Shown piece after piece: positions 883 through 46,634 of a stretch of DNA of 64,000 bases. Below the pieces are notes generated by a model. The model was not told the origin of the DNA and did not search any database. It saw nothing but the letters and a program-made list of their open reading frames with translations. Made by a program: the position numbers and the translations under genes. Source of the DNA: Nageia nagi. Its lineage: Eukaryota; Plantae; Pinophyta. Every line of letters starts with the position of its first letter. Position 1 is the first letter of the stretch. Location: positions 179,986,001-180,050,000 of the forward strand of contig JBITNC010000001.1 in the NCBI GenBank assembly GCA_050084985.1, written 5' to 3'.

Positions 883-2315
883 TGATACCCCAAGGTTTCT
901 GATGAAAATTTGATGGACACCCCAAACTTGGTTTTTGATGAAAATTTGTCAAATTTTTCATTTTAGGCACCATTTTTCACTCCATTGGATTTGGAAAAAT
1001 ATGGAAAACTGTTTCTAGGAATTTGAGCCACCAAACTTACTCAAAATTGAAAGTTTGCAAGTTTAAATGTGCTAGAAATGCCAATTTTGACCCAATGAGC
1101 ACCTTAGGATTGATTTTTGTTGAATTTTGCACTTACCCCTCCAAGTTAGGTGCCAAAATGCAAGTCTATGGATTTCCAATCACTTGGAAACTTGCGCCTA
1201 GGATTTTAGGGCACTTCCATTGGTCAAAATCAAAAATTTGTAGACCTAAAGTGCCTTAGAACAGGATTTTACATGCAATCAAACCATCTCCCTTGATTTT
1301 CAAGACAAATTTCATTTTTCCCTTGGTAGCTAGGTGCCAAAATACACCCCATTGGATTTGCCTAGCCTTGGAGGGCTCAAAACTTGCTCAAAATCGAAAA
1401 TTTCAAGTCCTAATTGTGTTAGAAATAACCTTATTTCTCCAATGACGCTCTTAGACTTGATTTTCAACACCATTTTGCAATTCCTAGGAGCTATGTGTCA
1501 AAACCCAGGCTTGGATATCACTAAAATCCTCAAACTGTGCTCTTGGGCACACCTTGTGCATTCCGGACCCATATCCACCATTTCCAAGCTTGAACTTGAC
1601 TAAATCCACATTTTTCGTCATTTTCAGGCTTAAACTGTGCAAAAACGATCATTTTCGGCATTTGCGGTCAAAACTGAGCTTAAAGTCTGAAAAAGATCAT
1701 TTTCGGCACTTCAGAGCTCAAACTCTACATTTTCAGCCAAAACCACACTTTCCAAGTATTTTGAGCTCAACTTTACATTTTTTACCATTTTCGAGCTTTC
1801 CGAGATCAAAACATGCAAAAACGCACATTCTTGCCTTACTAACCACTTCCGGCCTCAAAATTGACAACACATTTTCTATCACACTTGCCCTTTTCTAGCA
1901 TTTCGGGCTCAAAATTGACAAAAACACTTATTTTTGTCATTTTAGCCATATTCACAGCTCTAGGACTTAATCTTGACAAAAACGCTCATTTTCGTCACAC
2001 TTGGCACTTTTGAGCTTAAAACTCTGAAAAACAACCCCATCTCTATTGACTGCACTCTAGACCAAAAATCTGTGCTCTAATACTCTCTCTTAGATCTTGG
2101 CTCCTTGGCTCCAAAATTGGTGACTGAAAACTTTGATACTCTTCAAGGTCTTCATCGCAAGATCTCCTTGAATCACTCCCTGATATCATGTTTGCACTCT
2201 TCAGAATGAACTATCCGTCGCCAAAAGCCAATCTCAAGGCAATGCACTTTATTGCCTTTGCAAAAATAGGGTCCCCAAAATCTTGAATTTTGGGGTGTAT
2301 TGTGCGGGCACAACA
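883..2315 (-). mobile_element. 5' fragment of a TGTTG...CAACA giant-LTR-like element, abutting/inserted in the 5' LTR of the Reina-like element
   Basis: Reverse complement from 2315 reads TGTTGTGCCCGCACAATACACCCCAAAATTCAAGATTTTGGGGACCCT, homologous to the starts at 13667, 36176 and 39019. Degenerate internal repeats at ~1560-2030. The left end is uncertain and no TSD was found. Confidence 0.7.
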
Positions 2316-12999: not shown

Positions 13000-13967
13000 A
13001 CCACTCCCAGTATTCAAGGCTGAGAAGAAGCGAGTGATGCAGGTTTTTGATGTCATCCTAGGAAGTCTTTGTTGGAGTTGACAGTGGATTGATCTCGTCA
13101 TATCTCTATGGTCACCCGGGCGCTTACTATTTGAGACTCCTTGGGGCTGGAAGAAGGAAGGGATAAGTCTGAATCTAGTGCCTATCTTAAGTCTATTATT
13201 GAGTTTTTTTCTCAGATAAAAAGAGCAATGGACCTCTAGTGTTCCTAGTTTATCCCAGATTTTAGTGTATGGGTGTCTTTAAATAAGCAATAATGTTTGT
13301 CATGTATCTCATAGTAGATGGGGCAAGTGAAGATAAAATGCTCTTCAAATTCCACTTCGAGATTGCAAAATTTATAAATACACTAATCTTTGGGAAGGTG
13401 GTGATTTGTCTCAATATGTAGTTGGTGTGAACAAGCTCGTAACTGGGCTAGAGGGAACTTGAGGCTATGCGACATTTGCATAAAGTTATCTTTTGGGTTA
13501 GTGCTCAATCTATTTTCTATTTGGAGTTAGAAGCAAAAAAAATGAAGTAGCTTCAGTGATAGAGGCTCCTTTGGTTCAATCTATGTAATCTTTCGACATG
13601 TTGAGTATATCTCGTCTCTATACTCCTTATTAATACTAAAATATGCAGCATTAGTTGGCAGCTTAGTGTTGTGACTGAAACACAACATGCCCCCAAATCT
13701 TGCGATTTTGGGGACCCTCAACACTTCATGTAAATACTTTGCAATGTTGTAGTCTTATCCAACTCAAGTGATGTCGCAAGACCCAGATTCAAGGACAAGC
13801 CCCTCACGTTCAAGCCTCATCCTTCGTCCAAAGTCAATCATACCAAGCTAAAAGTGTGAAATTCTTCCAAAAATGGCTAAGTCCGGAAACTGAACGTCAA
13901 CCTTAGGTGAGCTAGGAGAGTCTAGGACGAGCCATGATAGAATCAAGCCAAACTGGGTCACTCCTAG

Positions 13968-14941
13968 GGTTGGCGCATGATTTCAAAAGACAAAATCTTG
14001 TCTTTTTGAAACATGCAACTAGACCTGGGAGCCGTCCAAACTAAAGTTGAGGCTTGGAAAAGCAATCTGGGCCACTTTCAAGCCCAACGCATGCCTCCAG
14101 GAGAGAAAATCTTTACTTTTCGAAGCATGCGCCAAGGACAAGCAACAAACTGGACCAGGATGAAGCTCGAAAAGACAAGGTAGGGATACTTCAAGGTTGG
14201 CGCATGGTCTCAAAAGACAAAATCTTGTCTTTTTGAATCGTGCGACCAAACTGGGAGAAGCAACTGGGCGAGTTCAAGGATTGAGAAGTGAATCCCAGGC
14301 ACCCAAGAGGCTGGCGCAAGCCTCAAAAAGACAAGATTTTGTCTTTTTGAACCATGCAACTAGCCCAAAAAGGCTTGCAATTTGTTCAACCAAGAACAAT
14401 GACTAAAGCATGAAGCTTGAAATCTCGGGACCAAGTCCAACACACCCAGGAGGGCTGGCGCATGATTCCAGAAGATAAGTTTGTGACATTTTGAGCCATG
14501 CGCCAAGCCCAAGAAGCCTCTAGGATTGACCAAAGGGGGGGAATTTGGCAAAGGCAAGGGAAAAAAAGCATCAAAGAACGAAAAATTGGCCATCTGGAGG
14601 TTGGCGCATGATTAAAAAAGACAAAATCTTGTCTTTTTTAACCACGCAACCAAGATGGACGGGCAGGAAAGGCTTATGCATGCCTTAAAAAGTCAAAAAC
14701 ATGATTTTTGGAATCATGCGCCAAGCTTGAGGAGTGCCCAAGTTGAGATGAAAGATCAAATTCGACAAGTCCAAGCACCAGAAAGACCAAAAATCAGGAA
14801 AGATCAGGTCGAAGGGCGAGTTCACAATCGAGACAAGCAAGCAAGTGAACAAAAAGGGCCAACGTTTGAAGCATGCTCAACCCCAAGGCTAGCGCATGAT
14901 CCAAAAAGACACAGTCATGTCTTTTTTGGCCATGTGCCAAG
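13968..14941. repeat. Array of 8 spaced ~53-bp palindromic units (GGYTGGCGCATG-N-AAAAGACAAAATCTTGTCTTTTT-N-CATGCG)
   Basis: Units start at ~13968, 14081, 14195, 14309, 14452, 14599, 14671 and 14887, separated by dissimilar spacers of ~20-160 bp. Confidence 0.9.
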
Positions 14942-15093
14942 CCAGAATGAGCTCTAAAACCCCAAGGTCCGGTCACAGGCAACTTGACATGAATTTTGGC
15001 GTAGGCACACATCTCGAGATCGTCCAAACGGATGGCTAAGATCAAGTTTGCTCATTAACCTAATTGACTAGGGTTAGATGCAAGCCAGTTTGG

Positions 15094-15102
15094 CTATAAA
15101 TA
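15094..15102 (+). promoter_or_regulatory. TATA box upstream of the orphan ORF
   Basis: CTATAAATA, 230 nt before the ATG at 15324. Copy C has TATAAAA at 40724-40730 before its ATG at 40865. Confidence 0.5.
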
Positions 15103-15323
15103 CAAGCCTGGGGACTTCATTTTTTCAAATCCAAAACTCGCTCCTTTTCCACTTTTGTGCCAAAGTAGCAGGAAACTGCAGATTTTTGAGCTTGAATCCC
15201 ATCATAATCTATCCTAGGGCTTGCGCAAGCATTTGGAAGGCAAGCCAATCCAATGTGGGGTGCCTTCACCACTTGGAAACCCTTGCATCACCCTTGAGAG
15301 ACTTCGTTGCAAACCTGAACACC

Positions 15324-18300
15324 ATGACTACTCCCAAGGGCAATGTGGCTTCAAACTTTGCTAGGGACCTCGAGCAGTTGACACAAGATTGCGTTATCAC
15401 TATCTATGAAAGACAAGACTCCCTTCCCCAAGGGGCCAAATTCTCGAGGAACGTTCTTGCTACCATCAGAGATACAGAATGGCAAGACATTGATTGAGAG
15501 ATAAAATACGGGAGTTACCCATCAGTGACCTCAAACAAGACATTGTCTTCTTCTTTGGACTCTCCACATGCACATGTGTACCCTTCACAGCTCCGTTTCT
15601 TGAATTGTGCATGGAGGTCGACCATCACTGGCAAAAGGGGGGGAGAGTCCTCCGTGATATCAAAGGAGACATCATCATGGACTTCAGCCCCAACGCCATC
15701 AAAACGGTGTTCCAGTGGACTCAAGAAGGAAATTTCAAGTACAACGAGGCACAATCACTGGCATGCTATCAAGAGACCAACAGGGCCGTTGTTGCAATCA
15801 AGAATTGGATGTTGGATGACCATCATGGACTCAAGGGTAACACTCTCATAAATGCTCCTCGTTCCAATTTCTATCCTTCAATTAAGTTGATGATCTTGAT
15901 GTTGTCCAAGGTTCTCGAGAAGGAAGATGCTTCTAAATTCAGGAAAGAGTTCTTTGGCTTCATCATTGAAATTGCTAGAGGGAAAAGGATTAGGTGGAGC
16001 AAGGTGTTGAGTGACACAATAGCTGATCAGTTATCATCCATAGGCACCACTCGCAAATTCTACCTCAATTCATACCTAGTGTACATGTTGCTTCACGACG
16101 AGTACAGGGCCATGGCGAAAGGAGAATCAACATTGATCGAGAAAGGGACCTATGCCATTTGGAGATGCTACCCTAAATGGAAGCTTGAGAGGAGATGGGA
16201 TAGTTTCACCATGAAGAACAATGGATGGGAGTATGAGATCTACAAGGAGCTCAAAGGAGAAATCACAGTGGCAAGGATCTCTAACTCAGCCCAAGATGCA
16301 TTGAAGAAGCATGGGGACTTCTTCCTCCATCACCAACACTATTCCTATATCAAAATCCATGGGTCAGCCGTGAAGTCGTATCAATTGCCAAGGTTCATGA
16401 GCAACAAATTGCTTCTTATGGAGATGAGGCAATTGGCCTATCTACATGAATAGGTACGGAAGAAGAAATCGACTTCTTCAAATTTGTCGATTATAGTAAG
16501 TGAATACCAGTGTAAATCTTGGGCGGACGTTCACACTATGAAGGAAGAGTTAGCGAGATGTAACTTCAAGAAGATGCCTACCGCCGACCATTATGACCTT
16601 AACCACAGGATGCACCAGTTCTTCATGAAGGAAAGGAAGAAAGCATATAAGTACAAACCACGTGGAGAAAAGGAACCTTTCCGAAATGGGAGTAACGAGG
16701 TAGAGATGAGAAAGATTCGCGAAAAGATGCATAAAGATGCCCATGATCAGCAACACCTTGTCGAGGCCACTATCAACAAGAGATTATCACAACAGGAGGG
16801 AAGAAGACCTCAAGAGTCCACATCCAGGGTCACCCAGTTTCCTCCCACAGTTGAAGCACCAGTTGGACAGTATGCGTCAATGCGTGGCAAGAACCCAATA
16901 GAGTAGAAGTAAGGGATACCATTGATGAGCACGAAGTGAGAGAGCTAGAACATGTGGCCACGGACAAGATGGTGAAGTGTGTCAGGAATAGAGAGAAGGA
17001 TTCAACCCCACCACCAAGATCACCTAGAGAAGTAATTGGGAGTCCATCACTAGTCATTCCGCTATCTAGGTCTGCATCCACTAGTCCCGCATATGAACCT
17101 GACAACCATGAGGAAGAAGAGGAAGTCAGTGAGACAAAAGAAGAACAAGGAGTAAGTGCATATTAGCACGATGAAATCCCAGATACACGGCAAGAAGACG
17201 AATCCTTGGAGATAGTGAAGGTAGTCCAGAACCCCACAGCTTCCAAACCATCCACAGAGAAGGTTAAGGGATGGGCCTCAGAGACAGTACAGAGAAGAGC
17301 CTAGTTGAAGAGAACTTCACAATCATGGACAACAAAAACCTCCGAGGAGCTTGGTGAAGAAGAGGCAAGACCCTCGAAAAGGGCCAGGAAAAGTACCACC
17401 ACCATTCAGGAAGTAGTTGTTAAGACTCATTAGCCATCACCTACAGATGAATGGAGAGTTAATATGGAGGAGTGTCTGGATGTGTTCAACATGGATGTTG
17501 AGGAGGAGTTTGGAGTGAGAGAAGAGAATGATCAGATTAGAGAAAGCTCCACTCGCCCGAGTAAGACCTAGACTTATGTGCATCTAGCCAAGAACACAAT
17601 TCACATCAAGACTATAATCGCAGAGAAGGAGAATTCCCAACGACTTGAAGATCTCAGGCAGGTGAACCAAATCATCAATACAGGTCCTATTGGTTTGGCT
17701 GGTCGGAAACATGCAATCATCTCCACCCTTGAGGCGATTACCAAAGATGGGATGATGAAAGAGAAAGAGATTAAAAGCCTCAAGAAGAAGTTAGTTGCAC
17801 AAAAGTAATTGACTAGAGAATTAGAGTTAGCTAAGGTGCCCACAGAGGAGCTTCGAAAGATAAAATCACTTGAAGAGGGCATGATTGCAGTGAAACAGGA
17901 AAAATTGATGAGGTCTTAGTAGTAGTACAGTAGTTCATTGGTGCACTACAAAGGGTAGCATTTGAAGAGCAGAAGCTGAAGGATATTGTGGTGGAGAGAG
18001 CCAGCCTTCTCAGGATTTTGGATTCCCGAAGGCCTATGATCATGAAGTTGGAGATGACACGAGACCGAAGGCTCGAAGATGTGAAGTTTTGTGAAGAGTA
18101 CTGGTTCTACTTGGGTGTCGTCAACCAGATAGCCACACATTTCCAGGAGGTGCAGAAGCAGGTCGAAAAGCTCAATGACAAGGCTAACACTAGCCTCAAG
18201 CAGATGGATTTCCAGGTCAAGTTCATTGATGATGATGCCACCATTTGAGATAAAGACCTGGTAGTGGCGAAAGTGAGGCACTTTCTTCACAGTCTAATCA

Positions 18301-18527
18301 TGACTGATGATGTCAACACCTACCAAATTGGGAGTCACTTGAAGCACCTACCTAAAGCTCGCACTTGGAAGGATGATATGCAGAGGATGGTGGACAAGGT
18401 TGGACGCCGCATCACTAGGAACGGGCCAAAGCTATCATAGATGCTGCACGGGTTAGAACTCACAGCAAAGTTCTTGGATGAAGATTTTGAAAGACGCATT
18501 GAGGTGTTGGGCCCACATGTGCCTTAG
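15324..18527 (+). pseudogene. Disrupted ~1060-codon orphan gene of element A
   Basis: Same-strand ORF pieces 15324-15497, 15494-16453, 16484-16906, 16936-17166, 17578-17808, 17988-18248 and a tail ending ...ERRIEVLGPHVP* chain through single stops and frameshifts. Collinear homology with 40865-44446. Confidence 0.85.
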
Positions 18528-20621
18528 TCGCAATTTTCATAGTTTTATGTTATTTTCAAGAAAATGCATTTATTTTATGAAACATTTTGATTATATTTGA
18601 TATTTAATTCCTATGTTTGAGATGGATGAGGATTTGCTCCCACAAACTTGGAAGACATTTAGTAATGCCATGTGGCAAGCTTTGATTGAACCATTTGTTA
18701 CTTCTTGGATTTTGAAATTAGGGTTAGGGAAACATTTAGGGTTGCCACAAAACTATTTATAGCCCACTAGGGCTCATTTGTAGGGGATTAGATATTTTTG
18801 CACTTGTGAGAGACTTAAATTTTACTTCCAATTCAGCAAGTTTGCTCCATTTACGAATGTGATATACTCCAAGTAATTGAATTGTAAATGCTCTCATTTG
18901 AAACAATGAATGTTAATGGATGTTACTTTCTTATGTTGTCTTGAATACTTGGTGCATTTTGTAAATCCGGTTTAAGGTGGACAAAAGAGTGCTTGAACAT
19001 TCTTAGAAGTACTTCAAGTAACGCATGGTTATGTAATGATTCATAGTTTGCACTTAGGACTTGTACACTTTATGATGGCTCCCATATGTCACTTAGTCTA
19101 GGAACTTCACTCCTTTGATTAAGGTCTACCCACCTCTCACCCCTTTTACCTCCATCGCCTTAGCTTCAAGCTCCTCTTGCTAGGTCATTTGTGTCGTTGC
19201 CCAACAAGTTGGATTCAGAGTGCGTGGAACCTATGACAAGCCCGTGAGAGTTGAGTCTTAAAACCTATACCAATCGGTGAGAACATTGAGCTCATGTGCT
19301 GAATTCATATATCACTGTCTTCTCAACCTTTTTTCTTTTATTTTTATCCTTTTTTGTCGGGCTTTTGCAACCTCCCTTTTCTTTTCCTTTTGAAAAACAA
19401 CCATTCCTGGGGACAAGGACCCTTCGAGTCCTTGGTTAATGAATACTATTTGAGTTGGAGATAGCTTCAAACATCTCTACCAATCCCCTGAGTCACCTCT
19501 TGCACACTACAACACTAAACCTTTGAGGTAACCAGTCCTCATAGCGGGTAGGTGTCACGCCCTACCACTCAAGTGTCGGTGTCTTTCTATGGGCCTTGCA
19601 ATTTAAATTGCCCATTAGCAAGGTAGGAAACAAAAAGCCCCCAACACTTAGTAGGAAGGAGTCTCCATTATAAGTATTTCAATTTCGAAGGCTTTTATGG
19701 CCTTTGTTTCTTCATTATAAGTATTTCATGCATGATTTGAGTTATTCTTTCATTTCAAATTTGGTTTTAGTCACTAATCTATAAGGACAAGCTTGGTCAT
19801 CATCTAAGTTGATCGTAACCCCTGCAAAATCTAGGACGAGTCAATCCCCCCAAAACCATTGAACTTCCAGGTGCTCTTTAGAAAGAATTCGATGGTGAGT
19901 TTCTAAGGGTTAGAACTCTGAGATGCACAACATATCACATTCCTTGTTTCAAATTGATATATGTTAGATTTACAATTGTGATGCTTGTTTGTTAGATCTT
20001 CATGGGCCTAGTTTGTTCATTAATGTTATATTACACTCCTTTATTGATATTTCTTCTAGGCAAATTCTATATTAATCTTGTAGGCAAATTATTGGGTTTT
20101 ATTATTGTTATAATTCATTTTTTTCATCTACATTATTGTGTAAGGAAACAAATGTCAAATTATTATGTTGTATATGGAAGATGTAATCTTATGGGATAAT
20201 GTATCACTATCACCAACATGTGGCAAATATATCAGGTATCCCTTCATGGTTTAAGGGGCCCATAGGTTCTATTTCATGGGGCTTTAACATCCATGGTATT
20301 ATTAGTTGTTAGACATAAATATAAAAGGGAGATGTCATTAATCATGTCTTCAAACATTGTACACGAAAATTTGGAAGGTTGCCCCTTCATAGTGGCTATG
20401 CATATTATGGTATTTCTCTATCTTAAGGGTTCTCAAATATCTTATGTGCAATTCCTTTTGTTCTTCAATTATTTTTGCACATTGTGGTGACATTTTGTGG
20501 AGTATTATTCTTATTTTCTAGCATTTGCAAGTTGAATCATAACAAAGGAAGGCAACTTTTTTCCCCAAAACTACAAATACAACCTTACCCAATATAGATG
20601 CATTATGTATAATATTCTTAC

Positions 20622-30900: not shown

Positions 30901-33300
30901 TTGCAAAGTTTGTAACACCTTCCTAAGATGTACTAAATGTTCATCCCAATTACAACTACAGATCAGAATATCATCAAAATATAAAGGAACAAAAGAATCA
31001 AGATATGGCCTCAGGACATCATTCATCACCCTCATGAAGGTGGAAAGTGCATTACACAACCCAAAAGGTAAAACTAACCATTCACATAGACCTTGTCTAG
31101 TCTTGAAGGCAATCTTCCAAATGTCCTCCTCTTTAATTCTCACTTGATGATACCCACTTCTCAAGTCCAAATTGGTAAAATACTTTGCTCCTTGCAATTG
31201 ATCCAATAGATCATTTATCTAAGGCAATGGATAACGATTCTTGATGGTTATTTTATTCAAAGATCTGTAGTCAATACACATTCTCCACGATCCATCTTTC
31301 TTATGAACTAGAATAACAGGTGAACCACATGAAGAAGTATTGGGTTGGATCATGCCTTTATCCACCAGCTCTTGTACATGCCTCTTAATCTCCTCTTGTT
31401 CCAAAACCGATTGCCTAGACAATCCTATGTCAGGAAGAGGAATCAGGTAACAACTAGATTTCATGTTGAATGTCCTGCATAGGTGGCAATCCCTTTGGCT
31501 CAAAAAACACAATCTAAAACTCGTACACCAATTTCTATTGTTGATCTTCTTGCCTCAACAGCACCTGCGTTGTATTTTCAATCTAGAAGGATGTTAGCGT
31601 CGTGCACTTGAGAGAATCATCTTCTACAGCTCTTACCATGAGTAGCACGAATTTCAAATTGATGTTAATCAACCTTTTTACTTGACTGGATGTCACCAAA
31701 GACATTCTCTTTGCAGTCTGAAAAGCGTGAACAATATAGAACTTTCCATCTTTAATCAGTCTATATTGATTCTTTCTTTGATAATAAATGCCATCTTTGT
31801 CCTACAAATAGGTAAATAGTGAATATCAAGAGGTACCACATCCAAAACAGCTTCATTCGCAAAATTAGAGGAAATAGTGGAATTCAACTTGCATTGCTTT
31901 GTTACTTGTAACTTGGCATCACTGTGAACCCAACCTAATGGGTATGGTTGAGGATGCTTCTCTGTCTTCAACCCCAACTTTTGTACCAAACTTTAAGCAA
32001 TCGAATTTGCTTAAGAACCAAGATCTAAAATAGAATTACTAATTGTCCCCTTGATTTGGATCTTGACATGGAATGGTGATGTCCTCTTCTCCTCAACATG
32101 TTTGCATTTCCAACTTCATGGACTATTGTACATTTAAGGTTTTCATCAGAACCTCCACTATCCTCACTCTTAGTGACCATTGCATTCTTTTTATTTGGAT
32201 TCTTCTTCTTCTTGTATGGGTACAACTCAGGATGAAGCTTCCAACACTTCTCATCTACATGTCCATCTTTGTCACAATGTGAACAATGTCATGTATCACC
32301 TTCCTTCTTTGAAATATTTGTGGTTTTCTTCTCTTGTTGCTTCCCTTTAGCTTTCTCTTGAGATTTACTGCCTTCTTGGTTCCCCTTATTATTTGTATTC
32401 TTCTTGGAGTTCTCAAAATGTTGTTTATGTCTCCCATCTTCTTCCAAATATTGAGCTTGCACACAAACTTAATCAAAATTAGTAGGATTAAACAACATAA
32501 TCAACTTCTGCAAATGAGTATACAAACCTCCAATGTACATCAAAATTTGAGGATCCTTAAGAGAAACCCCAAGTAAATTTGTTTGCCTCCTAAATTCAAT
32601 GGTGTATTCTTGGATTGATTGTCCTTTTTGTTGGCGAAAAAATTGCCATTTCATGAGTCGCTTATTATGATGACCCAAAGGATAGAACTGAACTATCAAC
32701 AAATTCTTGAATTCGTCCCAAGAAGAGATAGATGGTTCATCCTCATGTTTGAGGGATTATACATGACTCTCCCATCAAACTAATGCATGACCTCTCATTT
32801 TCAATCTAGCAAATGAAATTTTATGAGCATCATTTTCAACACATTGAAACTAAAAGTATACCTCAAGTTGCTTCAACCAATTGTTGAGCTCCTTTGCATC
32901 TACCTCGCCTCCAAACGTAGGGATCTCCAACTTGGCCTCTACTTTGAATGGCAATGATGTAGTGGCATGAGAAGGTCCAACATCTTCAAATGGTCTTCTA
33001 TCATACTTAGGTGTCCTTGGATCCTCCCTAGTTTGTCTTCCTTGAAGTAACTCCATTATTCTAGCCATATTGTTCTCCATTGCAAGAAATCTCCTCTCGA
33101 ATTCAAAACTCAAGTTAGAATCAATTTGTGGATGCTTTATTCAACTTTCTTCTTGTTCTTCCATTGAATTGGTTCTTATATGCCTTCTTCCAATCTCAAG
33201 ATCAAAAGGAAACAACTTAGCTCTTTGAGACCTTCTACCTTGCATAAACAACTTTGTTTTGTGGAGGTTTATCTTTTGATGTGATGTCTTCCCATGCAAC
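27978..33300 (-). mobile_element. Decayed Ty3/gypsy element (CRM-like gag/protease), 5' LTR missing
   Basis: gag KVEAKLEIPTFGGEVDAKELNNWLKQLE; Zn knuckle at ~32240-32290; VQKLGLKTEKHPQPYPLGW; [33 protein letters not shown]; RNase [14 protein letters not shown]; integrase HTSKFAGHFG..ISMDFV. PPT at 28616-28630, 3' LTR ~27978-28615. Confidence 0.9.
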
Positions 33301-33309
33301 TTCAATATT

Positions 33310-35374
33310 TTCTTAAACTATTTCGTTTCGTTCACAGTGGCTTGCCCTATTAAAAGTGTCATCTACAAACTAATGATGTGTGACAGCTTCACAATCTCTT
33401 CTAGGAATTATTTCTTTTATTGTATCCTTTCTTTTTTCATCTTTTATTGCCATTTCTAATGCTTCTTCGATGATTATAAAAAAATAAGGAGAGATCCTTG
33501 TCTTAATCCTCTTTAAGAGGTAAAGTACCCTACCACTTCACCATTAACTAGTACAAAAAAACTTTGGAGTAGTGATACATTCCTAAATCCATTTCCTCCA
33601 GGTTACTCCAAAACCAAATTTTTGCAAGATTTGATCCATGAATTTCAAATTGATTTTATCATACGCCTTTTCCATGTCTAGTTTTAGAATCATAGCTTCC
33701 TCTTTTTTTATATTTATTGAATGTAACACTTCATGCATCAAAACTATTCCATTTGTGATTTGTCTTCCCTAAACAAAACCATCCTACTTTGGAGACACAA
33801 TCCATGGCAAAATTCTTTTTATTCTCTCAATCATGATTTTGCTTCCTAGGGCTTTCGGATAAGAACTAAGAAAGTTGCATTCCATGCTTTTAGTAATGTA
33901 CCTTTTCTAAAGAATTCCATAATTGCTTTTTGTACATTCTCTACCACTATTTCCCAATTTTATTGAAAGAAGCCTGTTGAAAACCCATTCAAACCTAGTG
34001 CTTTATCCTTGTTTAGTAAGAACATAGTTTCCTTAATTTCCTCTTTAGATACAGGTTTTTCCAACTCCAATCTTGTTCTTTGATCTATTATTTGGGGTAT
34101 ATACTCCAGAATTTTCTTCATTATTGTCCTATATTTCCCTTTAGTCTAAAGATAATAACTTCTTGTAGACCCTTTCTAATCCATTCTTTATTTCTTTATC
34201 TCTAGTTATGCTTCCATCATATTTCTTTACTTCAATTATTCTATTAAAACTCCTTTTCAAAGTAGTAATTTGAAAAATCTAGTGCTTCTATCTCCTTCCT
34301 TTAACCAAGCTACCTTGGATTTGTGTTTCAAATTTTCAATGTATTTCCTCTTGGGTTAAAGTGTTATAGTGCTCTAATATATCTCCTTCTTCCCATCAAT
34401 AATCACATCTCTTCCTTCTCTTAAGATCTGTTGTTCTATTTCCTCTAAAGCATTTTTTAGGGTTTTTTTCCTAGTTTTAACATTTTGGAACGCATGTTTG
34501 TCTCAATGCTTAAGTTTTCTCTTTACTTCTAGCTTTCTTGAGAGTTTGTACATTCCAATTCCATTTACTTCTTCCTTCCACCATTCTTTTAAATTTTCTT
34601 TGACACTTGGATGTGTCATCCACATATATTCAAATTTGAATGGAGATTTCTTCCTTTGTTCTAGATTCATATTCAGCAGCAATGGATAATGGTTAGATGT
34701 TATTCTTGGCAAAGATAGTAAATCATTGTTTTGGAACTCCTCTAGCCAATCCATTAAGACCAATATCCTATCTAAGCTCCTATGTATGAAATTCCACCCA
34801 CATCTTCTATTTGATCATGTAAATTTGTTTCCTTTGAGACACAAGTCTACCAATCCAATAGAGTCCATCAAGGTCCTTAAATCTTCCAGGCTTCTAGACA
34901 GATTAGTTCTTCCACCAAATATATCTTCTAGGTGCAATGGGGAGATCAAATCTCCGCCCACCACCCGTGGTTCATTTTAAAAAGTTTTCATATGATCTGT
35001 CAATTGCTCCCATAAAGTTTTTCTACTACTTAGAATATTTGGAGCATAAACATTTGATAACATAAAGGAAAATTTGTTGTCAATACACACTACTCTTACT
35101 ATGATGCATCTTGAAGAAGTAAAATTAACTCTTTGAATGTTTACAGTTTTTGGGGTCCACAAAATCCATAGCCCACCAGCTTTTCCTACTACATCAATCA
35201 CCTAAATATGTGCTTCTTTCCAAATCTTATACTTCATTGTTTGTTGTTTCTCATTTTTAACTTTAACTTCCTAAAATAAAATTATGTCTAGTTTGTATAC
35301 CATCCAGACTTCTCTTGCAAATTTTGTCTGCCAGGTAAGTTGCAACCTCTTATATTCCAGCATAGTAGATTCAT
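33310..35374 (-). pseudogene. LINE ORF2 pseudogene (APE endonuclease + reverse transcriptase)
   Basis: MNLLCWNIRG start; GKAGGLWILW; NVYAPN; SNHYPLLL..FKFEYMW; LKLDMEKAYD; RGLRQG; FVDDT at ~33355-33370. Many stops. Confidence 0.92.
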
Positions 35375-36480
35375 TTTGACTTCCTTGAGCTGGGTTTCCC
35401 ACCTCCACTCCACTCTAGAGTGTTATTTTTAATAGCAGAACTTGTATATCTTCCCTATTTACCCACATTTGTTGTTTTCTAGAATTTTTAATTGTTCTTG
35501 TTCTGGAATGTTCATTTTCCTTATTTCCTTTTGTATTCTTCCCTCTTTTCCTACTATTTCTTTTTGTTAGTTGTCTTTCATGCTCTTCAGCAACTACATC
35601 TATCTCTACATTTGCTTCGTTCTCAGCCTCTTCTTCTGCAGTCTCCTCTTCTTCTTCTGGCTCCTCTTCTTTCTCTTCATGCTCATTTCCATCTATAGAC
35701 TTTTCCGGTGTTTTAGTAGACTCTACATTGATATCCCTCTCTTCGAAGAATTTGAGTTTCCTAAACTTCATATGTTGTTTCTTCCTCATTTTCCTCTAGA
35801 AATTCCTTTGTAATGTTTCCCAAAATTTCATATCAGTTTCTTTGAGCTGATGTTTGGGGTATTTCTGGAAATTTCTTTGGATTTTGTATTTTTTCAGGCA
35901 CTTTCCCCAGTAGTTTGTCTTGTGCTTCCTTCATTAATTGATCTGGTCCCTTTAAGGTCCTTCCTGCGGTATTTCTTTTTCTTTTTCTTTTCCTTTTCTT
36001 ATTTATTGATCTTGGTTTTCAATCCTTCTACATGTCCATCTCCATTCTATATTTTGCCTTTGTCTTCTGTCATTTGCTGGTTTAGTTGGACAGTCTTTTC
36101 CAATATGGCCAAAGATTTTGCATTCAGTACAAGCCATTGGCTTTAAGTTGTGGGAAAGTTTTTGAATATGCTCCCTATTCTGACTGAAACACAACATCCC
36201 CTAAAATCTTGCAATTTTGGGGACCCTCAACGCATCATGTATATGCTTCGTTTTGTCGTCGTCAATCCCACCCAAGTTGCGTCTCAAAGACATAGATTCA
36301 TGGACAACCTATTATAGTTCAAGCCACTTCCTTCGTCTAGGGTTAGTCATGTCAAGATAGGAATTTCAAAATCTCTAAAAAAATGGATAAGTCTGGGAAA
36401 GGTAAAAGTCGATCTTAGGTGAGAACTAGGGAGTCTAGGAAGAGTCGGAGCTTGATCAAAGCAAACTGGGGATCTCCAAG

Positions 36481-37448
36481 GGCTGGCGCATGCTTCAAAA
36501 AGACAATCTTGTCTTTTTGAACCATGCGACTGGGCCTAGGGGTCATCCAGACAGAAGGGAAGGCTCAAGAACGGAATTTGGGCACTTGCAAGCCCAGCAC
36601 ATGCCTCCAGAAGACAAAATCTTGTCTTTCCTGGGCATGCGCCAAACACAGGGAGCGAAATGAAGCCAAAGTAAGCATGGAAAACCCAAGGCAAAGGCAC
36701 TACAAGGCTAGCGCATGGTTTAAAAAGACAAAATCTTGTCTTTTTGAACCATGCGACTTGGCCAGGAGGACAAGATGAGCAAGTTCGGAGGTCGGGAAAT
36801 GATCATGAGTCATCCAGGAGGCTGGCACATGCTTCAAAAAGACAAAATCTTGTCTTTTTTAACTATGCACCAAGCCTAGAAAGGCTGCCAGTCTGAGCAA
36901 AGTGGAAAATTTGACAAGTCCCCGGACTCAGGAAACTCAAGACCAACTCAAGCATGCCCAAGGGGTTGGCGCATGGTCTAAAAAGACAAATTCTTGTCTT
37001 TTTGACACATGTGCCAAGCCTAGGAAGCCTTAGGATTTGAAAAAAGTAAAAATTTGGCTAAGGCATGGGCACTTGAAGATCAAACTCTGGAAAATAGGCC
37101 AACTGGAGGCTAGCGCATGCTTCAAAAAAAAAAATCTTATCTTTTTGAACCATGCGACCAAGCTAGATGGACAAGCAAGGCTAGCGCATGCCTTAAAAAG
37201 TCACAAACTTGACTTTTGGAAGCATGCACCAAGCCCACAGGTTGCCCAAGTTGAAATAAAACATCAAAATTGATAAGTACAGCTGACCAGAAGACCCAAA
37301 ATCAAGAAAAATTAGGTTACTGGGTGAGTTAGGTGAACAAGGCAAGCAAGCATGAAGGCAGGAGACCCAAGGTTGGAAGCATACACACCCTTAGGGCTGG
37401 CGCATGGTTCAAAAAGTCACTTTTTTGTCTTTTTTTCCATGCACCAAG
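36481..37448. repeat. Array of 8 palindromic units, positionally equivalent to 13968-14941
   Basis: Units at ~36481, 36591, 36706, 36820, 36964, 37108, 37179 and 37394. Confidence 0.9.
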
Positions 37449-37534
37449 CTAGGTTGAGCATTAAAACCCAAACGTTTGAGCACAAGCGGCTTTATAGGAG
37501 GTTCTGGGCTGGCACACATCTCGAGGTCAGCCAG

Positions 37535-37694
37535 GTGGGAGAAGGATATGATGAGGGTCACCGACAAGGTAGAGCGTAGCATGGTGAAGAATGGGCCGAA
37601 GCTATCAAAGATGCTACATGGATTGGAGCTCACAGCCCAATTCTTGGACTACTTTGAACGGCGTGTAGAAGCGTTGGAGCCACCATCTGCCTAG
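37535..37694 (+). pseudogene. C-terminal remnant of the orphan gene in copy B
   Basis: WEKDMMRVTDKVERSMVKNGPKLSKMLHGLELTAQFLDYFERRVEALEP matches WKDDMQRMVDKVGRRITRNGPKLS*MLHGLELTAKFLDEDFERRIEVLGP at 18367-18527. Confidence 0.85.
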
Positions 37695-39200
37695 TCACAA
37701 TATTTGTTGTCTTGCATTTATTATATTTCATAAGTTATTTTTGGAGGCTTTATTTATTTGTTAATAAATTCCCAAATTTGTGATGGATCAGGATTTGCTC
37801 CCACAAATTTGGAGGACATCTTGTAATGCCATGTGGCAATGTTTGATTGGACCACTTATTATTTCTTGGAACTCGTAATTAGAGTTAGGGCAACATCTAG
37901 GGTTGCTCTAAAAATATTTATAGCCCATTTGGGCTCATTTGTAGAGATCAGACATTCTTTGCAACTGGGGACTACTTACATAATACTTTCAATCTTGCAA
38001 GTTTTCCCTTTTCGCAATTGTGATATAATTCCAAGAAATTGAAGTGAGCTTGTTTTCATTTGGGACTATGAAAATGAATGAGTGTTACATTTTTATGCTA
38101 TCTTGAGTATTTGAGACATTTAATAAACCTTGTTGGTGGATAAAAGAATGCTTGTATATCCTTTCGAAATATTTAAAGAAGTGTTTGATTGTAAAGTTTC
38201 ATAGTTTGCACATGAGATTAGTGTGTTCTAAGATGACTTGTGTATGTTGCTTAATATAGGAACTTCACTCCACAATTGAGTTCTACCCACATGATACCTT
38301 TCTTATCCATCGCCTTAGCGCCAAGCTCCTCTCGTTGGGATGTTCGTGTTGTCGCCTTTCGAGTTGGATTTGGGGTGAATGGAACCTATGCCAAACCTGC
38401 ACAAGTTCAGTCTTAGAAAATCGTACTAATCGGTGAGAACATTGCCCTAGAGCTGAATTCATATATCACCGTCTTTCCACAACTCTTTTTCTTTATTTTC
38501 TAATTCTTTGTGCGGCTTTTGCAAAAAACCTTTTTTTCCTTTTCGTTGAGAAACAACCATTCCTGGAGTAGAGACCCTTCAAGTCCTTGATTAACAAATT
38601 TCATTTGAGTTGGTAATAGCTTCAAACATCTCCACCATATCACCTGAGTGAACCCTTCCATCCTTCATTTTCAAACCTTTGAGGTAAAAGTCCTCATAGC
38701 CGGTAGGGGTCACACCCTACCACTCAGGTGTTGGAGTCTTTCTACAAGCCTTGTGATCCAATTTACCAATCAGCAAGGGTAGGAAAGAAAAAGCCCCCAA
38801 CACTCCCCATTTTTGTTCTTCAAACAGATCCTATTTTGTAAGGGTTTAGAAACATCAATATTTGCACAAAGACATGTTGAGGCATACCTCTATGCTTCTC
38901 TTGTATTTTTAATTTTATGCAGGCAAATGAAGGTTCTTAAAGATTTGGCTACCCCTTTTATAAGATCCACACACCAGAAATCCAAGGGTAGGTTTGGAAG
39001 GGTTATGCATATTGGTACTATTGTGCCTACACAACACCCCCCAAAATTTTGCATTTTGAGGACTCTCGAAAATAAAAGGCCAATGTATGTAAGTAAGACA
39101 TCTGTCTAGAAGGAATGTATACATCTTGGTCTAGTTTCAGGAAACATGCTAAACTTGCACATTCATAATCAAATCAAGTCAAAAACCTGCATTTTTCCTC

Positions 39201-40616
39201 AGTCGCACATTTTGAGGGACATGCTTTTGCACATCCCCTAAATGGTGCAACCAACCTCATGTTGCATTTTCACACTCATACTTGCATTTTTCAGCCTTAG
39301 AGTTGCACTTTCGGGGTCCCTCATGCTGCAAGTCCATTTCTCTTTCATTGCATTTCGTATTTAAGGTCATCATGGTCAAGTTTCAAAGATAAAATAGGTT
39401 TTTCAGCTAGTCGCATGTTTTCAAGTGTATGCTTTTGCACCCACCCAAAACCGTGCGATCAAAACTGGGAACTCATACTTAGCAATTTTTCGCAAAAAGG
39501 CTTAGTTGCATGTTTTTAGGTGTGTGCTTTTAAAGCACCCAACTCAAACCATGCGACCAAGGAGGAGAAGACTAAGACTTAGCCGTTTTTAGAGCTTACA
39601 AGGCCAATCGCATGTTTTTCAGTGTGTGCTTTTGCACCCATCCAAAATCGTGCGACCAAATTCATGGGGTAAAATTTGGTTGTGTCGGACTCAAATTGTT
39701 GACGAGTTTAAGCACATGCATTTGACCACTTCTTGCACTAATCATATAACGGCACCTGTCCTATCCAAGAAGGCTATAAAAGGAAGTTCAACCTCGATCA
39801 TTCTGTTTGGAAGGTTGCCAAGAGCACTGCGTGGAGCTAAGGGAGAAAAAGCACGTCCTTCAAAACTTGCGACCTGTTCAAATTTGCATTTTTTAGTCAT
39901 TTTTCACCTATGTTTGAAATTTCTAGTCTCGGGAAGTGTGCCAAACCCCAAGCGCATCATTTGTTATACATGAAAAAGCAACCCTCCCGAATCATACGCC
40001 CAGTCTCAAACGTTTTGGCTCCGAGTGAAATTGGCAAAGTGTTTGAAATCTAGAGGAAAAGGCCAGGCACAGGGTTTAAGGTGCATGCTTTTGAACTCTT
40101 CTAAAGCGATGCGACCAGGAATTGGGCCCCATCATACATTTAAATTTGACTAAGTTCCCTACCCCCTAGTCGCATGCCTTTTGACACATGCTTTTGCACC
40201 TGTTCTAGACCATGCACCCTCTATTTTAGCTCTACCATTTGAACATGAATCCGACCAACCCAGAGGTGACACGTGGCAACCCGCAAGGTTATAAATATTA
40301 GGCCACCCCTTAGTCACTTTTACCACTTCGTCTCAGATTTTCTCCATACTCCCCAGTCACACCATTTTCTAGCATATGCTTTTGCACTCTTCTAAAACGG
40401 TGCGCCAAGAAAGAAATAAGGAGTTTAAGGGGGCCATTATGCATCCAAATAGCCCTTGAGGTGCATGCTTTGCAGTGCATGCTTTTCCCCTCACCCAGAT
40501 CCATGTGCCTAGGTGTGAGGTGAAGAATTATAACCCAGAATTTGACTAAGTGACCCAAATCCTAGTCGCATGCATTCCAGATAGTGCTTAAGCACTCATC
40601 CAAAACTGTGTGTCCA
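39201..40616. repeat. Array of ~9-10 spaced ~52-bp units (AGTCGCATG-N-TGCTTTTGCAC-N-CRTGCGACCA)
   Basis: Units at ~39201, 39408, 39503, 39606, 40066, 40167, 40355, 40460 and 40563, plus a degenerate one near 39700. Confidence 0.85.
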
Positions 40617-40984
40617 GGGTTACAAGGCAAAGTTGGTTAAGTTTGAGATGCCAAGAGTTGGGAAGAGAAGAAGACAAGTGGCAAGCATGCACCTTGCCAT
40701 ACATTCACCCTCAATGCATCTCATATAAAAGGAAAGCAGTTTTCATTTAGTGTGTTGGACGTCCTGCAACCCAAACCTACACATTTGGTTCTTTCCTGCT
40801 ACACCCTTCACAGCATCCAAGCTTGTCCTTAGGTCCTTCCAGGGGCATTTTCAAATAATCCTGCATGGCTTCCACTATTAGACCTCCTCCATCAAGAGCC
40901 AGGAAAATTCAAGGACAATTGTTTGAGAGACATGTGACTAAAAACCAGATGGCCCGGCTTTCGAAAGAAAGTTTGATTGAATTT

Positions 40985-40987
<3 letters not shown>

Positions 40988-41031
<44 letters not shown>

Positions 41032-41035
41032 GAGA
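40988..41035. repeat. (GA)n microsatellite
   Basis: Direct inspection. Confidence 0.95.
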
Positions 41036-41360
41036 AACCAGAGCTCCCTGAAGCCAAATTTAAAGGGAGATACATCTTTGTTGGTGATATAAACTGGGAA
41101 AACTTGGACCCCATCCAGACTTTAGCCTCTACTGCCTCCATCAATAAGGAGTACATATCAAAAGAGCTTATCCACACTTGTGGCTTGTTCAATGCCACTA
41201 TGATGCCTTTTGCAGTACCTTTTCCTGATTTGTGCTATGAGGTAGCCAGGAGATGTGCATACGACAAGAGAGTCCTACAGGACACAGAGGGAAATGTAAT
41301 TATGGACTTCTCCCCTGTTGGAATTGAAGCAGCCTTTGGTTGGAAAAGGTATGGGGACGA

Positions 41361-41448
41361 CTACACACTAGCATATTCTGAGGAGTTCCATGATTCCATA
41401 GCCTCTACACACTAGCATATTCTGAGGAGTTCCATGATTCCATAGCCT
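41361..41448. repeat. Perfect 44-bp tandem duplication
   Basis: CTACACACTAGCATATTCTGAGGAGTTCCATGATTCCATAGCCT twice. Confidence 0.95.
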
Positions 41449-44400
41449 GGCCTGGGGACTACATTCGACCATGGTTACTTGAAGATTATCAGAATCTTCA
41501 GAGCCAAAGGCTGATCAACACTCGTATAGAGGATTTTTTGCCTGTTGTGGCCAAGCTGATCACTCTTTTGTCTAAGGTCACTGGTCAAGAAAATGATACT
41601 AAGTATAGAAGGGAGTTTACGAGCTTCATTGCGGTTATTAGCTCGAAGAGAGCTATCCGATGGGCTGGGGTAATCAGTGATGCCCTACACCAACAGTTAG
41701 CTTATTTTGGCTCCTCGAAGAGATTCTACATGAATTCCTATCTTGTGTACTTGTTATTGCATGGCAAGGTCAGGTCTAAGGAGTTGGCTGATGAAAGATA
41801 TTTAGAACAAAAGAGCACCCCCATGTGGCGAGCTTATCCAAAGTGGTGGTACCCAAACAAGTTCCAGAATTTCTGTGACAGAATTGGTATGATATCTACA
41901 AAGATATCAAAGGGGAGTCAATGGTGAAGAGAATTTTTGATGCAGTCGTCCAAGCCATCAGTGTACATGTAGATATCTTCCTGCAGAATGCTGACCATAC
42001 ATTCATCAGAGCCTATGGCTCAAAAAGAGCGACCCTTGCTCCTACCAAGATATGCCAGCGACAGACTCATCCTCATGGAGTTTGCTAAGCAACTCTTGTT
42101 CTTTAAAGAGAAAGTTTGGAAGAAGAAGAATGCGACCATTAACTTGGCTATCTGAATTGCAAGGTATGTGTGTCAGACGTGGGTTGACGTAGCTAGAATG
42201 AAGGAGCTGCAACAGTATGCCTTCTCCAAAAAGGCAACAGCGAGAAACTATGATCCTAGAAATAATTGCACATTTCTACAGCACTACATTCCACAAACCT
42301 ATCGCTTTTCAGCATAAATCTTTGGAGAGTGTGGAGAAGTATTGAAACGTGCAAGATGAGGAGATTGCAAAGATAAATGCTCTCCTGAGCAAGAAAAAGG
42401 CTCCCCTCCAGGTAGAGAAACCACCTCAGAAACCCCGAACTACTAAATCTAGATCTACAGAGGTCCCTCTCAGGATCGAGTCATCTCTTCCTTTTGTTCG
42501 AATTGCACCACCACCAGTTAAGGCACCCTTGCTTCCTGTTGGAAGGAGGCAAGAGGCTCCGAGGGAGCACATTCCAGGCCCTAGCAAGCGTAGTGTAGTA
42601 ATGGCTGATCTCAAGGATGCTGGCTATCATACTATCCCCTCGAATGTACTGGATGAGGCTTGTGCCAGTGATTCGCCCATAAAAGAGGTCCCTTCCAGAC
42701 CCACTTGTTCTTCTGGATGTAGGGAGAAGGTTCCCCCTTTGCAACCAAGTTCTACTTCCAGTTTTGAACATCCCACTTCCTCCTCCAATGAAGAGACTGA
42801 TGAAGAACCCGACTGTAAACTAGAAGACTCCGGAGAAGAGTCAAAAAGCCGTGGTGAAAGAGAAGAAGAAGAGGAAGATGATGATGATGCTACCGATTAA
42901 AAAGATGTAGCTATACGTGCCTTTGCACTCGATGAGACGGAGATTGAAACTCTTCCAGATGAAAATGAGATAGTGCACGTTGGAACCTATGATGATGAGG
43001 TCCAGATCGTTGGAGATAGGTGTACTAGAGAGGTGGGTGCTTCCAAACCCTCTCTTGCCAAGCATAGGAAAAGGTCCCCTTCTTCATAAAAACCCTCTAC
43101 AAAGAGAACGAGCCATGAAAGGTGCCCCTAGCCACGGAATAAAGGCATATCTATAGGTGGCGATGGAGGAGATGAAGAGGATGAAGGAGAGATTGAGGAA
43201 CAAAAGAAGAAGAGAAGGTAGGAAGAGCACCAAGGCAAGGAGATTACCTTAGTTCAGACCACTCCAGCAAAAGAGGTCAAGAAGATCAACAAAGGACGAT
43301 TGTTGGTACAGAGGTTTCCTCCCCAGCCAACGCATCCAAATCTTGACCTAGATGCCTGCCTTAGAGCCCTCAGCATAATTACAGCTCATGATGAAGACAT
43401 AGACCAAGATCTACGCTCTAAAAATGAGGAAGAGGAGCTTTTAGATGGTTAAAAGATTTGAAGGGTTGATACATTTGTCTCCACCTCCCGAAAGGAAATC
43501 TCCATCAGCCATTGCTATTCAAAGGAGAAACATCCTCAAAGAGCAAAAGATTATGTTATCGAGACATTTAAGATGCTTGTGAAACTATGATTGACAACCT
43601 GTAAACATAGTCACTCAAAACGTTGCAGTCGTGGAGAAAGAGGGGTACGAAGCCAAGAAGGAGGTGAAAAGGCTGAAAAGGGAACTCACGGCCAGCAAGA
43701 AGATCATCAAGGAGTTCTAGAAGGTCAATACCACCCCTCAGATCTACAGAAGCAGACCTCCTTCCATGAGAGATGGGATTTGATGAAAAGAGTAGCTGAA
43801 GAAAGAAATGATGGAGGCTATCGAGAGATTGTCTTCTCGAATTTACAAGCTCCTTGCTGAAGGTGTGGAAATCAGGGACCTTAAGACACAAATATCAACA
43901 CACCTTAGCACATTGAATGGCCATTTTCCCAACGTCTCCCATCTGCAACATGTTTACGCTGACAATCCTAAGAAGTTAGTCTATTGCCACAAGTTCACAT
44001 ACCACCACAATTGGTTGAATCATGCACTCGAAAAGTGTAACGCAGTCTTGAAGCTCATAATCCCCTTGAGATTGGAGGTCGAGGAACAGATGAGTTACTA
44101 TGCCTATCAGCTAAAGTTCCAAGGGGAGGACAACAATGTGAGAAAGAAGGAGGTGGTATTGGTAGAGGCTCAGAACATGATATAGGAGCATCTAGACATC
44201 GATGATCTCAATTTGCTGAAGGCAGGGCATCCTATCGACCGCAAAAGGCGGATGGTCATCTAGAGGCACTAGATGCAGGCTACATCTAAGAAGATAGAGG
44301 ACTACTTTCCGTAGAATGGTAGCACCATCGGTATGATTTCCGGGGGCATGCGGAAGACTGTGACATTCTTGGAGGAGACCATTGAATCGTACGATCTCAC

Positions 44401-46634
44401 CAACAAGGAGTGGAACTCCGCCAGTACCGAATCAAATCTTGCCTAAGTCTGATCCACTCACAGATTTACTTTGTGATATTTGTTCTTTTGTTTAAATGCA
44501 TATTTGATGGTGGTTGTTATGTTAGATTCTATTTACTTGATTTGACTGGTGCAAGGATGAGTTTTTGCTCCCGCCGGGTCAATCTATCAGACTCATTTAT
44601 GACTCTGATCGATGCAGGGATGAGGTTTTGCCCCCGCCGGTTCAGATGTCAAACTTTTCATTGCATATTTGATTTGATTTTGAGTAGTTTAGAGGTAGAT
44701 TAAATGCACTCTAGTAGTGGCATTTATATTTTGTCAGACTTTTAAGTGCCACTTGCATCATTTCATGTGAACAATCTGATTTTGTATCGGTATGTGTGTT
44801 GCATGTGTGCACATCATATCAGATTTGATGCCCTTAGGTAAACACTTCTAGTGGCATATTTATACTCCATCATGGCCTTTTAGAAGAGGATTTGGCATTT
44901 GGGATTTTTGCATTTGGAATACTACTGATGTTGAGAATTTTACGCATATTTGCACATGTGAGACTCTGCATTTAATAGAAGTATTACATATTGAGGATCT
45001 TGCATTTCGAGATGTTGGTTTCAAACCTTTACATGTGTAAGATTCTTTGAGTTTGTTTAAAGCTTTTACATTCTGTTGCATAAAGGTTTGCTGCATAAGG
45101 GGTTCTATGCATGTTCATTATTGAATATCATTATGAATGTATTTCTTTTGTGGGATGAGATTATAAAGTTAATATTGTGAAGGATATCATTTGTGGGATC
45201 ATGCATATTTGAATAATTGTCCCCTTGGAGTTGCATATTGAATATTCATTGAAGTAGTTTGAGTCGTTCTTTGCATGGTTTGTACGTAAGTCGATGTATT
45301 CTAAGGCTCATAGCTTGTCTTTATACCATTCGATTAGGTTCCTATGCTCACACCTCACCTCATTCATTTCTTCCCACTGAGTCTTCCACTAAGACCCTAC
45401 AGCTTCTTGCTCTTGTCTAGTAGTGATTTGAGCACATATTGCTATTTGTTGCCCGACTTGATAGTGAGTACATTGACCTTAATGAATTTGAAGATGACCT
45501 GCAGAGACACTACATCACTGGTGATACCTTCATAAGTTCATCTTTCCCTGTATTCCTTGGCATTTATCCCTGTGTTTGTCCCTGCATTTGTGATCTTTCT
45601 TCGCTTTCATTCACATTTGTAGTCATTTCTCATTGTGGAGAAGAACTCTGGCGTTGTATTTCCCTTGTATACGGTTAACAACATGCATCTCTGACTATTG
45701 TGCCTTAAAGACCATATTCCATGTGAGAGGTTGGGGTAACCAGTCCTTTCAGGCGGAAACAAGTAACGTTGTTTCCTCCAAGTCTTGTGCATGTTTTGGA
45801 CTAGGAAAGAAAAACATACCAACAGGTACCACTTCAAAAGATACTTTTTCAGGTCTAAAACTAGGATACCATTTTTTCAAATGTAAACCACTTTTACCGA
45901 ACCACCAAGGTCCATTTTCCAGTACCCATTCCATGTCTTCTTCAACATTAAACTCACAAATCAGGAAGTCACATGAGAGGGTTCCCATTTCTACATTTCC
46001 TTTAATGATCCAATTTTCTTTGATCCATTTTCTGACATTTTCCAGCACTAGTCTGGATCCCATAAATTTCCCAACCAGAGACAGCCTTCTTGTTTCATCT
46101 ATTTTCGATGTCAGCTCATCAAGCATAATTATTTTGGACATATCTTGTCATATTCAACTTTTTGGATATCTACGGGTACTCCTATGCTTAGTTTGGGCAT
46201 TCCGTTTTTGGTTTTTAAAGTCCAGAATCCGAGAGGGTTCCCCCCCAGGAAGGTTTGGGGTCCATGGTTTTGTTGCTTACCTGCTAATCACATGTGCTGT
46301 CTGATCTGTCCTGATCCCCTTCATTTGGGGATTCTCTGTTCATGGGCTTCATTCTCCCTTCTTCCCACCCCTTAAAATTTGAAATCGCCCGCTCCTGTAA
46401 ACTAACAATATGGCAACCATAGAGTTTCTGATTATTTACAATATGAAGAATCTGTATGTATACCCACTGACTGATGCAACAGCAAATATTAGAAGTTGGA
46501 ACTAATCAGATATCTCTGTCATTATATAGTATAGCTGCAATTGGAAATGATGCTTCTTAGTTTGATTTTCAGCTTGCTCAGTTAAGTACAAGTACATGAT
46601 TATTTTTTTCTCAGATGAAAGCCTGATCTAAGAT

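Follow-up and report, generated by a model that had tools for sequence, protein, structure and literature searches.

Palindromic arrays with subfamily-specific cores upstream of a predicted VANC21-like gene in an abundant element family of Nageia nagi

Introduction

The stretch of Nageia nagi DNA analysed here (64,000 nucleotides, called the window below) contains three copies, A, B and C, of an element in which an array of short inverted-repeat units lies upstream of a long ORF. Copy C raises the question of why an array can keep its general layout while the sequence at the centre of its units is a different one. A sequence-only reading of the window had proposed that subfamily-specific cis motifs diverge together with the protein encoded by the same element, as in a lock-and-key self-recognition system with an anti-silencing or trans-activating role. 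Sequence-specific anti-silencing by an element's own protein has been shown for the VANDAL elements, and VANC21 acts on short motifs that were amplified by tandem duplication and co-diverge within a copy (PMC5735166). What the extra ORFs carried by Ty3/gypsy elements of plants do has yet to be settled (PMC7264820, PMC11963269).

Results

Arrays of the two types

Ten units were recovered in the C array, in agreement with the earlier count of about ten, with starts at 39202, 39410, 39505, 39607, 39951 (a weak unit), 40066, 40169, 40357, 40460 and 40565. In a leave-one-out profile the eight seed units of C scored 31-59 bits, the highest score in 60 dinucleotide shuffles being 9.3. The unit length of about 52 bp that had been assumed to be common to both types was not found, since units measure 50 nt in C (34 nt between the CGCATG and CATGCG arms, and 53 nt in total in one unit) and 48 nt in A and B (32 nt between the arms). 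As proposed, the arms are shared between the types: arm identity is 61% between the A/B and C types and 66% within type. Both arms have at most one mismatch in only 3 of the 10 C units. The C units are imperfect palindromes with a TTTT loop at the centre, less perfect than those of A and B. CGCATG is the sole motif strongly enriched in both the A and C types, by about 30-fold.

The exchange of the core was confirmed as a difference in sequence but not in the wording originally given to it. Core identity between the A/B and C types is 0.49, the same as that with shuffled cores, so the cores are unrelated; the C profile has matches in none of five A-type regions and the A profile in neither of two C-type regions. 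However, the core first noted for C, GTGTGCTTTTGCAC, is exact in one of the ten units; TGCTTTT is present in eight. The arrays of both types occupy the first 1.3-1.6 kb of the element, upstream of the TATA box and the ORF, as had been described, but unit length and spacing differ (mostly 95-115 or about double in C, 114/144 in A), so that the geometry of C is similar and not identical to that of A and B. The array observation is thus partly confirmed.

Table 1. Positions of the arrays, elements and associated features in the window
Feature	Position	Strand	Description
Element A	13667..19646	+	5,980 bp; TGTTG ... CAACA; target duplication CTTAG
A array	13972..14938	+	8 palindromic 48-nt units, CGCATG-N32-CATGCG, core AAAAGACAAAATCTTGTCTTTT
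A ORF, decayed	15324..18527	+	TATA box at 15095; about 1,070 codons, with 15494-16450 as the longest open piece; VANC21-like N-terminal fold predicted for the family
Element B	36176..38802	+	2,627 bp; A type, lacking about 3.3 kb (TATA and nearly the whole ORF); target duplication CTCCC
B array	36483..37446	+	8 units at positions matching those of A
Element C	39019..45824	+	6,806 bp; TATTG (decayed TGTTG) ... CAACA; target duplication GGTAC; inside ORF1 of a minus-strand LINE
Conserved left-end signature of C	39019..39066	+	two short hairpins; common to A, B, C, D and five loci outside the window
C array	39202..40614	+	10 palindromic 50-nt units, CGCATG-N34-CRTGCG, core around TGCTTTTGCAC
TATA-like box upstream of the C ORF	40724..40730	+	seen in the sequence; putative function
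C ORF, decayed	40865..44446	+	interrupted by numerous stops and frameshifts; globular N-terminal domain, then an acidic linker and a C-terminal part that is charged and helical
Fragment D	883..2315	-	family-like left end, different repeats; interrupts a gypsy 5' LTR; uncertain member of the family

Structure and surroundings of the elements

All three complete copies have TG..CA-type ends and a 5-bp target duplication, with inverted ends of only 5 bp (Table 1). The left end reads TATT- in both B and C, and TG is restored at the left end of C in the reads. From left to right the layout consists of the end hairpins, the array, the TATA box, a single ORF of about 1,070-1,190 codons (decayed in A and C) and a trailer of 1.1-1.4 kb. 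In C, two more TATA-like sites (about 39774 and about 40289) and a G-box, CACGTG, at about 40270 are candidate regulatory sites, and the element also carries RY-like GCATG sites; A and B have a TATA on the minus strand too, about 880 bp from the right end. Past the approximately 50 terminal bases no BLAST alignment was obtained between the non-coding DNA of A and that of C. A changed core is therefore to be expected, and it is the retention of the arms and of a nearly equal unit length that stands out. One ORF only was seen in a six-frame view of the element (plus-strand frames), with no second gene, and no Pfam family was found in the stop-free pieces scanned, which included no transposase or integrase and no MULE transposase gene.

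B and C lie 216 bp apart (38803-39018) within the ORF1 of one decayed LINE on the minus strand (33200-46200); this ORF1 (DUF4283, zinc knuckle) is split by the two copies, with DUF4283 at 45752-46147. At an outside locus, L036, a C-type right end is found 31 bp ahead of an A-type left end (4014-4044), in the upstream flank of a second one, L012, an A-type copy lies some 350 bp within a further relative, and the reads contain single-contig joints between family copies. Such adjoining or nested copies could reflect a target preference or sheer abundance. One contig (run X2) skips 5,434 bases of C (window 40279-45714), which suggests that C-type deletion derivatives resembling B exist.

The window also holds two decayed Ty3/gypsy elements with reverse transcriptase and integrase pieces (874-8214, whose 5' LTR is interrupted by D, and 28900-33200). 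A further LTR element at 49330-55157 has 1.1-kb LTRs that are 88% alike and a Met-type primer binding site (PBS). Internally it contains repeats of 30 bp, and its ORF pieces (52094-53951) have no Pfam matches; it looks like a non-autonomous element with captured sequence. An old direct repeat pair, 62% identical, is located on either side of it (47128-47678 and 56192-56757).

Fragment D had been taken as carrying a third kind of repeat. It does have repeats of its own, 40-58 bp long, at about 1580-2033, but it contains no CGCATG, no relative of the ORF and no target duplication, and its resemblance to C is confined to a 46-bp terminal match (E 1e-5). For these reasons, and because of its position inside the gypsy 5' LTR, D cannot serve as a third pair of protein and motif.

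Abundance and relatives of the family

C is covered end to end by 2,827-11,018 contigs in each of four read runs, from which we conclude that this is an abundant family. Metagenomes were scanned by pattern and yielded 54 loci, five of which are ends of the family (L005 of the C type; L012, L025, L036 and L049 of the A type); the other 49, like both viral matches, were rejected as chance. Relatives of the family were absent from the viral contig and genome contig collections. About 200 bp past the A-type element end in L049 there follows another sequence, rich in repeats, that includes GATGTCATC and GCCACGTGTC units, and the upstream flank of the same locus is a copia-like integrase piece.

A profile search for relatives of the protein gave 177 at E 0.001. 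One of them (P0205, 1,010 aa) is of similar length and has no Pfam family, and Taxus chinensis and Cryptomeria are the named sources of distant relatives; none of 1,613 candidates was a longer homologue, which is weak evidence. Two matches, P0171 and P0212, are mannosyltransferase gene models of Cryptomeria in which the first 69 residues correspond to the transposon domain, as a result of either mis-annotation or exonisation.

Selection on the ORF and its predicted fold

The dN/dS ratio is 0.056 for A and L036 over 400 codons, with synonymous sites near saturation, 0.164 for C and the C-type part of L036 over 264 codons, and 0.27 for A and C over 137 codons; a value of 0.94 for the tail shared by A and B covers only 43 codons and was set aside. 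These ratios indicate that the ORF is under purifying selection. The decayed copy in C additionally carries an (AG)24 microsatellite at 40987-41035, expanded where relatives have EFQEREKPELP, and a perfect 44-bp tandem duplication at 41361-41448. In a protein tree built from the 33 of 68 rows with at least 70 core residues, an A clade (n=23) and a C clade (n=9) were recovered, both with support of 99/94, and P0045 was placed on a long branch beside C.

No Pfam family scored above the cut-off for the ORF or its relatives, with the exception of one fused Cryptomeria gene model (P0171). DUF1985, which together with DUF287 characterises VANC proteins, was not among the Pfam matches listed for 150 members, and PMD matches (two of 68 members and one of 150) remained below the cut-off (best E 0.023). 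Searches of PDB sequences with the ORF family gave no match. The window's own protein yielded a poor AF2 model (pLDDT 39, from 11 rows), and the comparison of structures was made with an intact relative, P0082 (25% identity to A over 316 aa, E 1e-31), which was modelled with pLDDT 84 and pTM 0.80 from a 150-row alignment. In VIA-align the chain of VANC21 bound to DNA (PDB 9lnj/9lnk) took first place among 122 and again among 48,161 PDB chains, aligned over 241 of 362 residues with an rmsd of 4.5-4.6 and a Z of 8.2, a score just above the best of 7-8 that is typical of models with no clear match. The match is nevertheless isolated from the next ranks, which reach Z 3.2 and 4.2 on short stretches, spans most of the domain, and concerns a comparison that was chosen ahead of the test. 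In Foldseek VANC21-DNA was second (E 1.6; TM 0.23/0.30), with the top probability and TMq among the matches listed; all Atlas leads were below 0.9, the VANC/DUF1985 lead being weak at 0.78, and BFVD gave no match at E 0.001. From the model of this distant relative, the N-terminal domain of the ORF is predicted to share the VANC21/PMD-type fold. PMD-C proteins have been reported to have the VANC DUF1985 fold, and the same fold has been reported for the MAIN/MAIL PMD proteins (bioRxiv 10.1101/2024.09.27.615353; PMC13547354). Since the fold is also known in PMD proteins, and PMD-A is encoded by gypsy elements (PMC5418596), the prediction places the ORF in the PMD/DUF1985 group and does not fix its function.

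Correspondence of motif type and protein clade

If motif and protein diverge together, motif type should follow protein clade, and the check proposed with the sequence-only reading was a comparison of their trees. A and L036 combine an A-type array with an A-type protein and C combines a C array with a C protein, so the two clades match the two array types, but protein and array occur together in only these three copies of two clades and the congruence has no statistical power. A strict alignment showed that in all four A-type pairs the arms (76-84%) and cores (65-89%) are more conserved than the linkers (53-67%), with p from 3e-6 to 0.035, every pair including A; the CpG-bearing arms are the best-conserved part in three of the four. 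The sole C-type pair, C and L005, has no significant excess of conservation over the linkers, either in cores (p 0.67) or in arms (p 0.16). A looser alignment of units and linkers was significant for A and B only and is unreliable, given that its gap costs yield an identity of about 0.70 on shuffled DNA. The self-recognition interpretation is therefore partly supported. The predicted VANC21 fold, the purifying selection, the A and C clades and the conserved A-type units speak for it, but only two clades are involved, the non-coding DNA of A and C has diverged throughout, the C units are no better conserved than their linkers and D is without the ORF.

Discussion

Nature of the 6-7 kb unit

The ends of the element and the length of its duplication are those of LTR integration, for which a 5-bp target duplication is usual in plants (PMC11963269). 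We consider it somewhat more probable than not that the 6-7 kb unit represents a giant solo LTR, left by a gymnosperm retrotransposon that was probably of the Ty3/gypsy type, with the accessory gene lying inside it. We know of no other route by which such ends could arise in a unit lacking an enzyme gene, and the weight given to a solo LTR follows from this. The stand-alone alternative, on which we place clearly less weight, is a unit that lacks an LTR partner, has ends of the integrase type, carries a regulator gene only and is mobilised in trans by an unknown enzyme. It would account for the target duplication on both sides of all three complete copies, and for the lack of a PBS or any shared sequence beside the ends in nine upstream and two downstream flanks (E 1e-3); no parent element with paired LTRs, a PBS, a polypurine tract (PPT) and gag-pol was seen in the 11 flanks or among the loose ends of the reads, and no end adjoined a second LTR, a PBS or pol. 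These loose ends are heterogeneous at the left of C (7, 7, 9 and 9 contigs, agreement 0.47-0.51), at the right of C (16, 7 and 13 contigs, 0.43-0.48) and at the right of B (6 contigs, 0.57), although these figures come from consensus rows and from a minority of the loose-end rows (3,720 and 271), and unitigs break at shared junctions. The L012 flank does have a purine run (12 of 15), but inside another family copy. Against a stand-alone unit stand the shortness of the inverted ends (5 bp) and the fact that neither a transposase nor an integrase was seen; no copying route for such a unit is known to us, and very long LTRs would be expected to favour the formation of solo copies. The step to a solo LTR is itself awkward, because in conifers solo LTRs are outnumbered, at about one for every 4-7.5 complete elements (PMC5751070), and the family is atypical either way.

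A proposed mechanism and its alternatives

Our reading, to which we give slightly less than an even chance, is that a protein with a predicted VANC21-like fold binds the units of its own subfamily, likely countering host silencing, and that the array forms the 5' repeat region of the high-copy element of 6-7 kb which encodes this protein and which is likely a giant solo LTR. We tentatively suggest that the protein would bind half-sites of about 22 bp as a dimer, in which case the CGCATG arms could be the shared anchor and the inner half-site the key of the subfamily. Bound protein would keep the promoter active, with an anti-silencing or trans-activating outcome. New units would likely arise through duplication of periods of 70-115 bp, and this could allow a single altered core to spread across a subfamily.

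The main rival explanation, which we hold to be less likely, treats the array as a common kind of LTR-type enhancer that changes fast and is read by host transcription factors. The ORF would then encode a PMD-type accessory protein acting elsewhere, and cores and proteins would differ only through the age of the A and C lineages. Sirevirus palindromes likewise keep their structure while their sequence varies among families (PMC4728375), and an enhancer of this kind would agree with the failure of A and C to align except at the end, with CGCATG as the one motif strongly enriched in both types, with the G-box and the RY-like GCATG sites of C and with C cores that are conserved no better than linkers. 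It would not explain why A-type cores and arms exceed the linkers in every pair, and the top fold match is a protein known to bind the repeats of its own element. The arms resemble RY sites, but their binding by RY/B3 factors is weakened as a candidate, since VAL1-B3 tolerates no change in TGCATG (PMC5934628) and the arms are mostly CGCATG. We think it improbable that the units are neutral, as hairpins which slippage and template switching have homogenised and which nothing binds. They do fold as DNA hairpins (-5 to -20 kcal/mol), periods have been gained and lost between the arrays of A and L036, and the C-type pair has no excess conservation, yet the arms and the nearly equal unit length persist from A to C in otherwise unalignable DNA, and it is the arms with their CpG that are best conserved in most A-type pairs. 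Binding of the units by the element's own protein, as proposed above, remains our preferred explanation.

Comparison with known systems

The VANDAL elements of Arabidopsis, which are MULEs encoding VANC, are alike in the predicted fold of the protein and in having a dense, subfamily-specific, non-coding motif array (PMC5735166), the feature found here. Their motifs, however, are 9 nt long and in the same orientation, whereas the units described here are palindromes of 48-50 nt, and the present element has TG..CA ends with a 5-bp duplication and no transposase. VANC has been called dicot-specific (PMC13547354) and this element comes from a gymnosperm. The extra ORFs of Ogre, Retand and Athila (PMD-A, Transposase_28 and Athila ORF-1) resemble ours as conserved accessory ORFs with a globular N-terminus; that group also has nearby family-specific repeat arrays and LTRs of up to about 5 kb (PMC6317226, PMC11963269, PMC5418596). 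In contrast to those ORFs, which lie in the internal region (PMC7264820), ORF and array here are situated between TG..CA ends and inside the target duplication, with no gag-pol found and no Pfam match above the cut-off. The palindrome region in the LTRs of the maize Sireviruses Ji and Opie offers a parallel for palindromic cis units with a retained structure and family-specific sequence, but these are copia LTRs, with no ORF described within them in the sections consulted (PMC4728375); in the present family no internal region was found. GingerRoot DNA transposons are likewise plant elements with integrase-related transposition; they have a 6-bp duplication, inverted repeats of 100-150 bp and a DDE transposase (PMC6839031) instead of a 5-bp duplication, 5-bp inverted ends and no transposase family. 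On the features tested, we rejected identification of the element as a VANDAL, an Ogre/Retand extra-ORF element or a GingerRoot (PMC6317226, PMC7264820, PMC6839031). Among the titles listed by our literature search there was no report of such a gene-bearing LTR in gymnosperms, and the passages of PMC13468544 contain nothing on this family, which may already be in Repbase or REXdb, outside the search.

Significance

The family provides a matched pair that can be tested, consisting of two protein clades, two cores and a fold predicted to resemble that of VANC21. Annotation that relies on LTR pairs would overlook a gene lying within an LTR, and likewise a unit that lacks the pair. A wider claim, which we regard as doubtful, is that VANC-type lock-and-key anti-silencing occurs outside the DNA transposons of dicots, in a gymnosperm unit with retroviral-integrase-type ends that holds regulator and palindromic targets together within 6-7 kb (either as a giant LTR with a gene inside or as a single-LTR element that stands alone) and whose subfamilies swap the inner half-site. 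If the proteins bind their own arrays, the known range of this kind of anti-silencing would widen to include retro-type elements as well as gymnosperms, and it could help to explain the build-up of repeats in the giant genomes of the latter.
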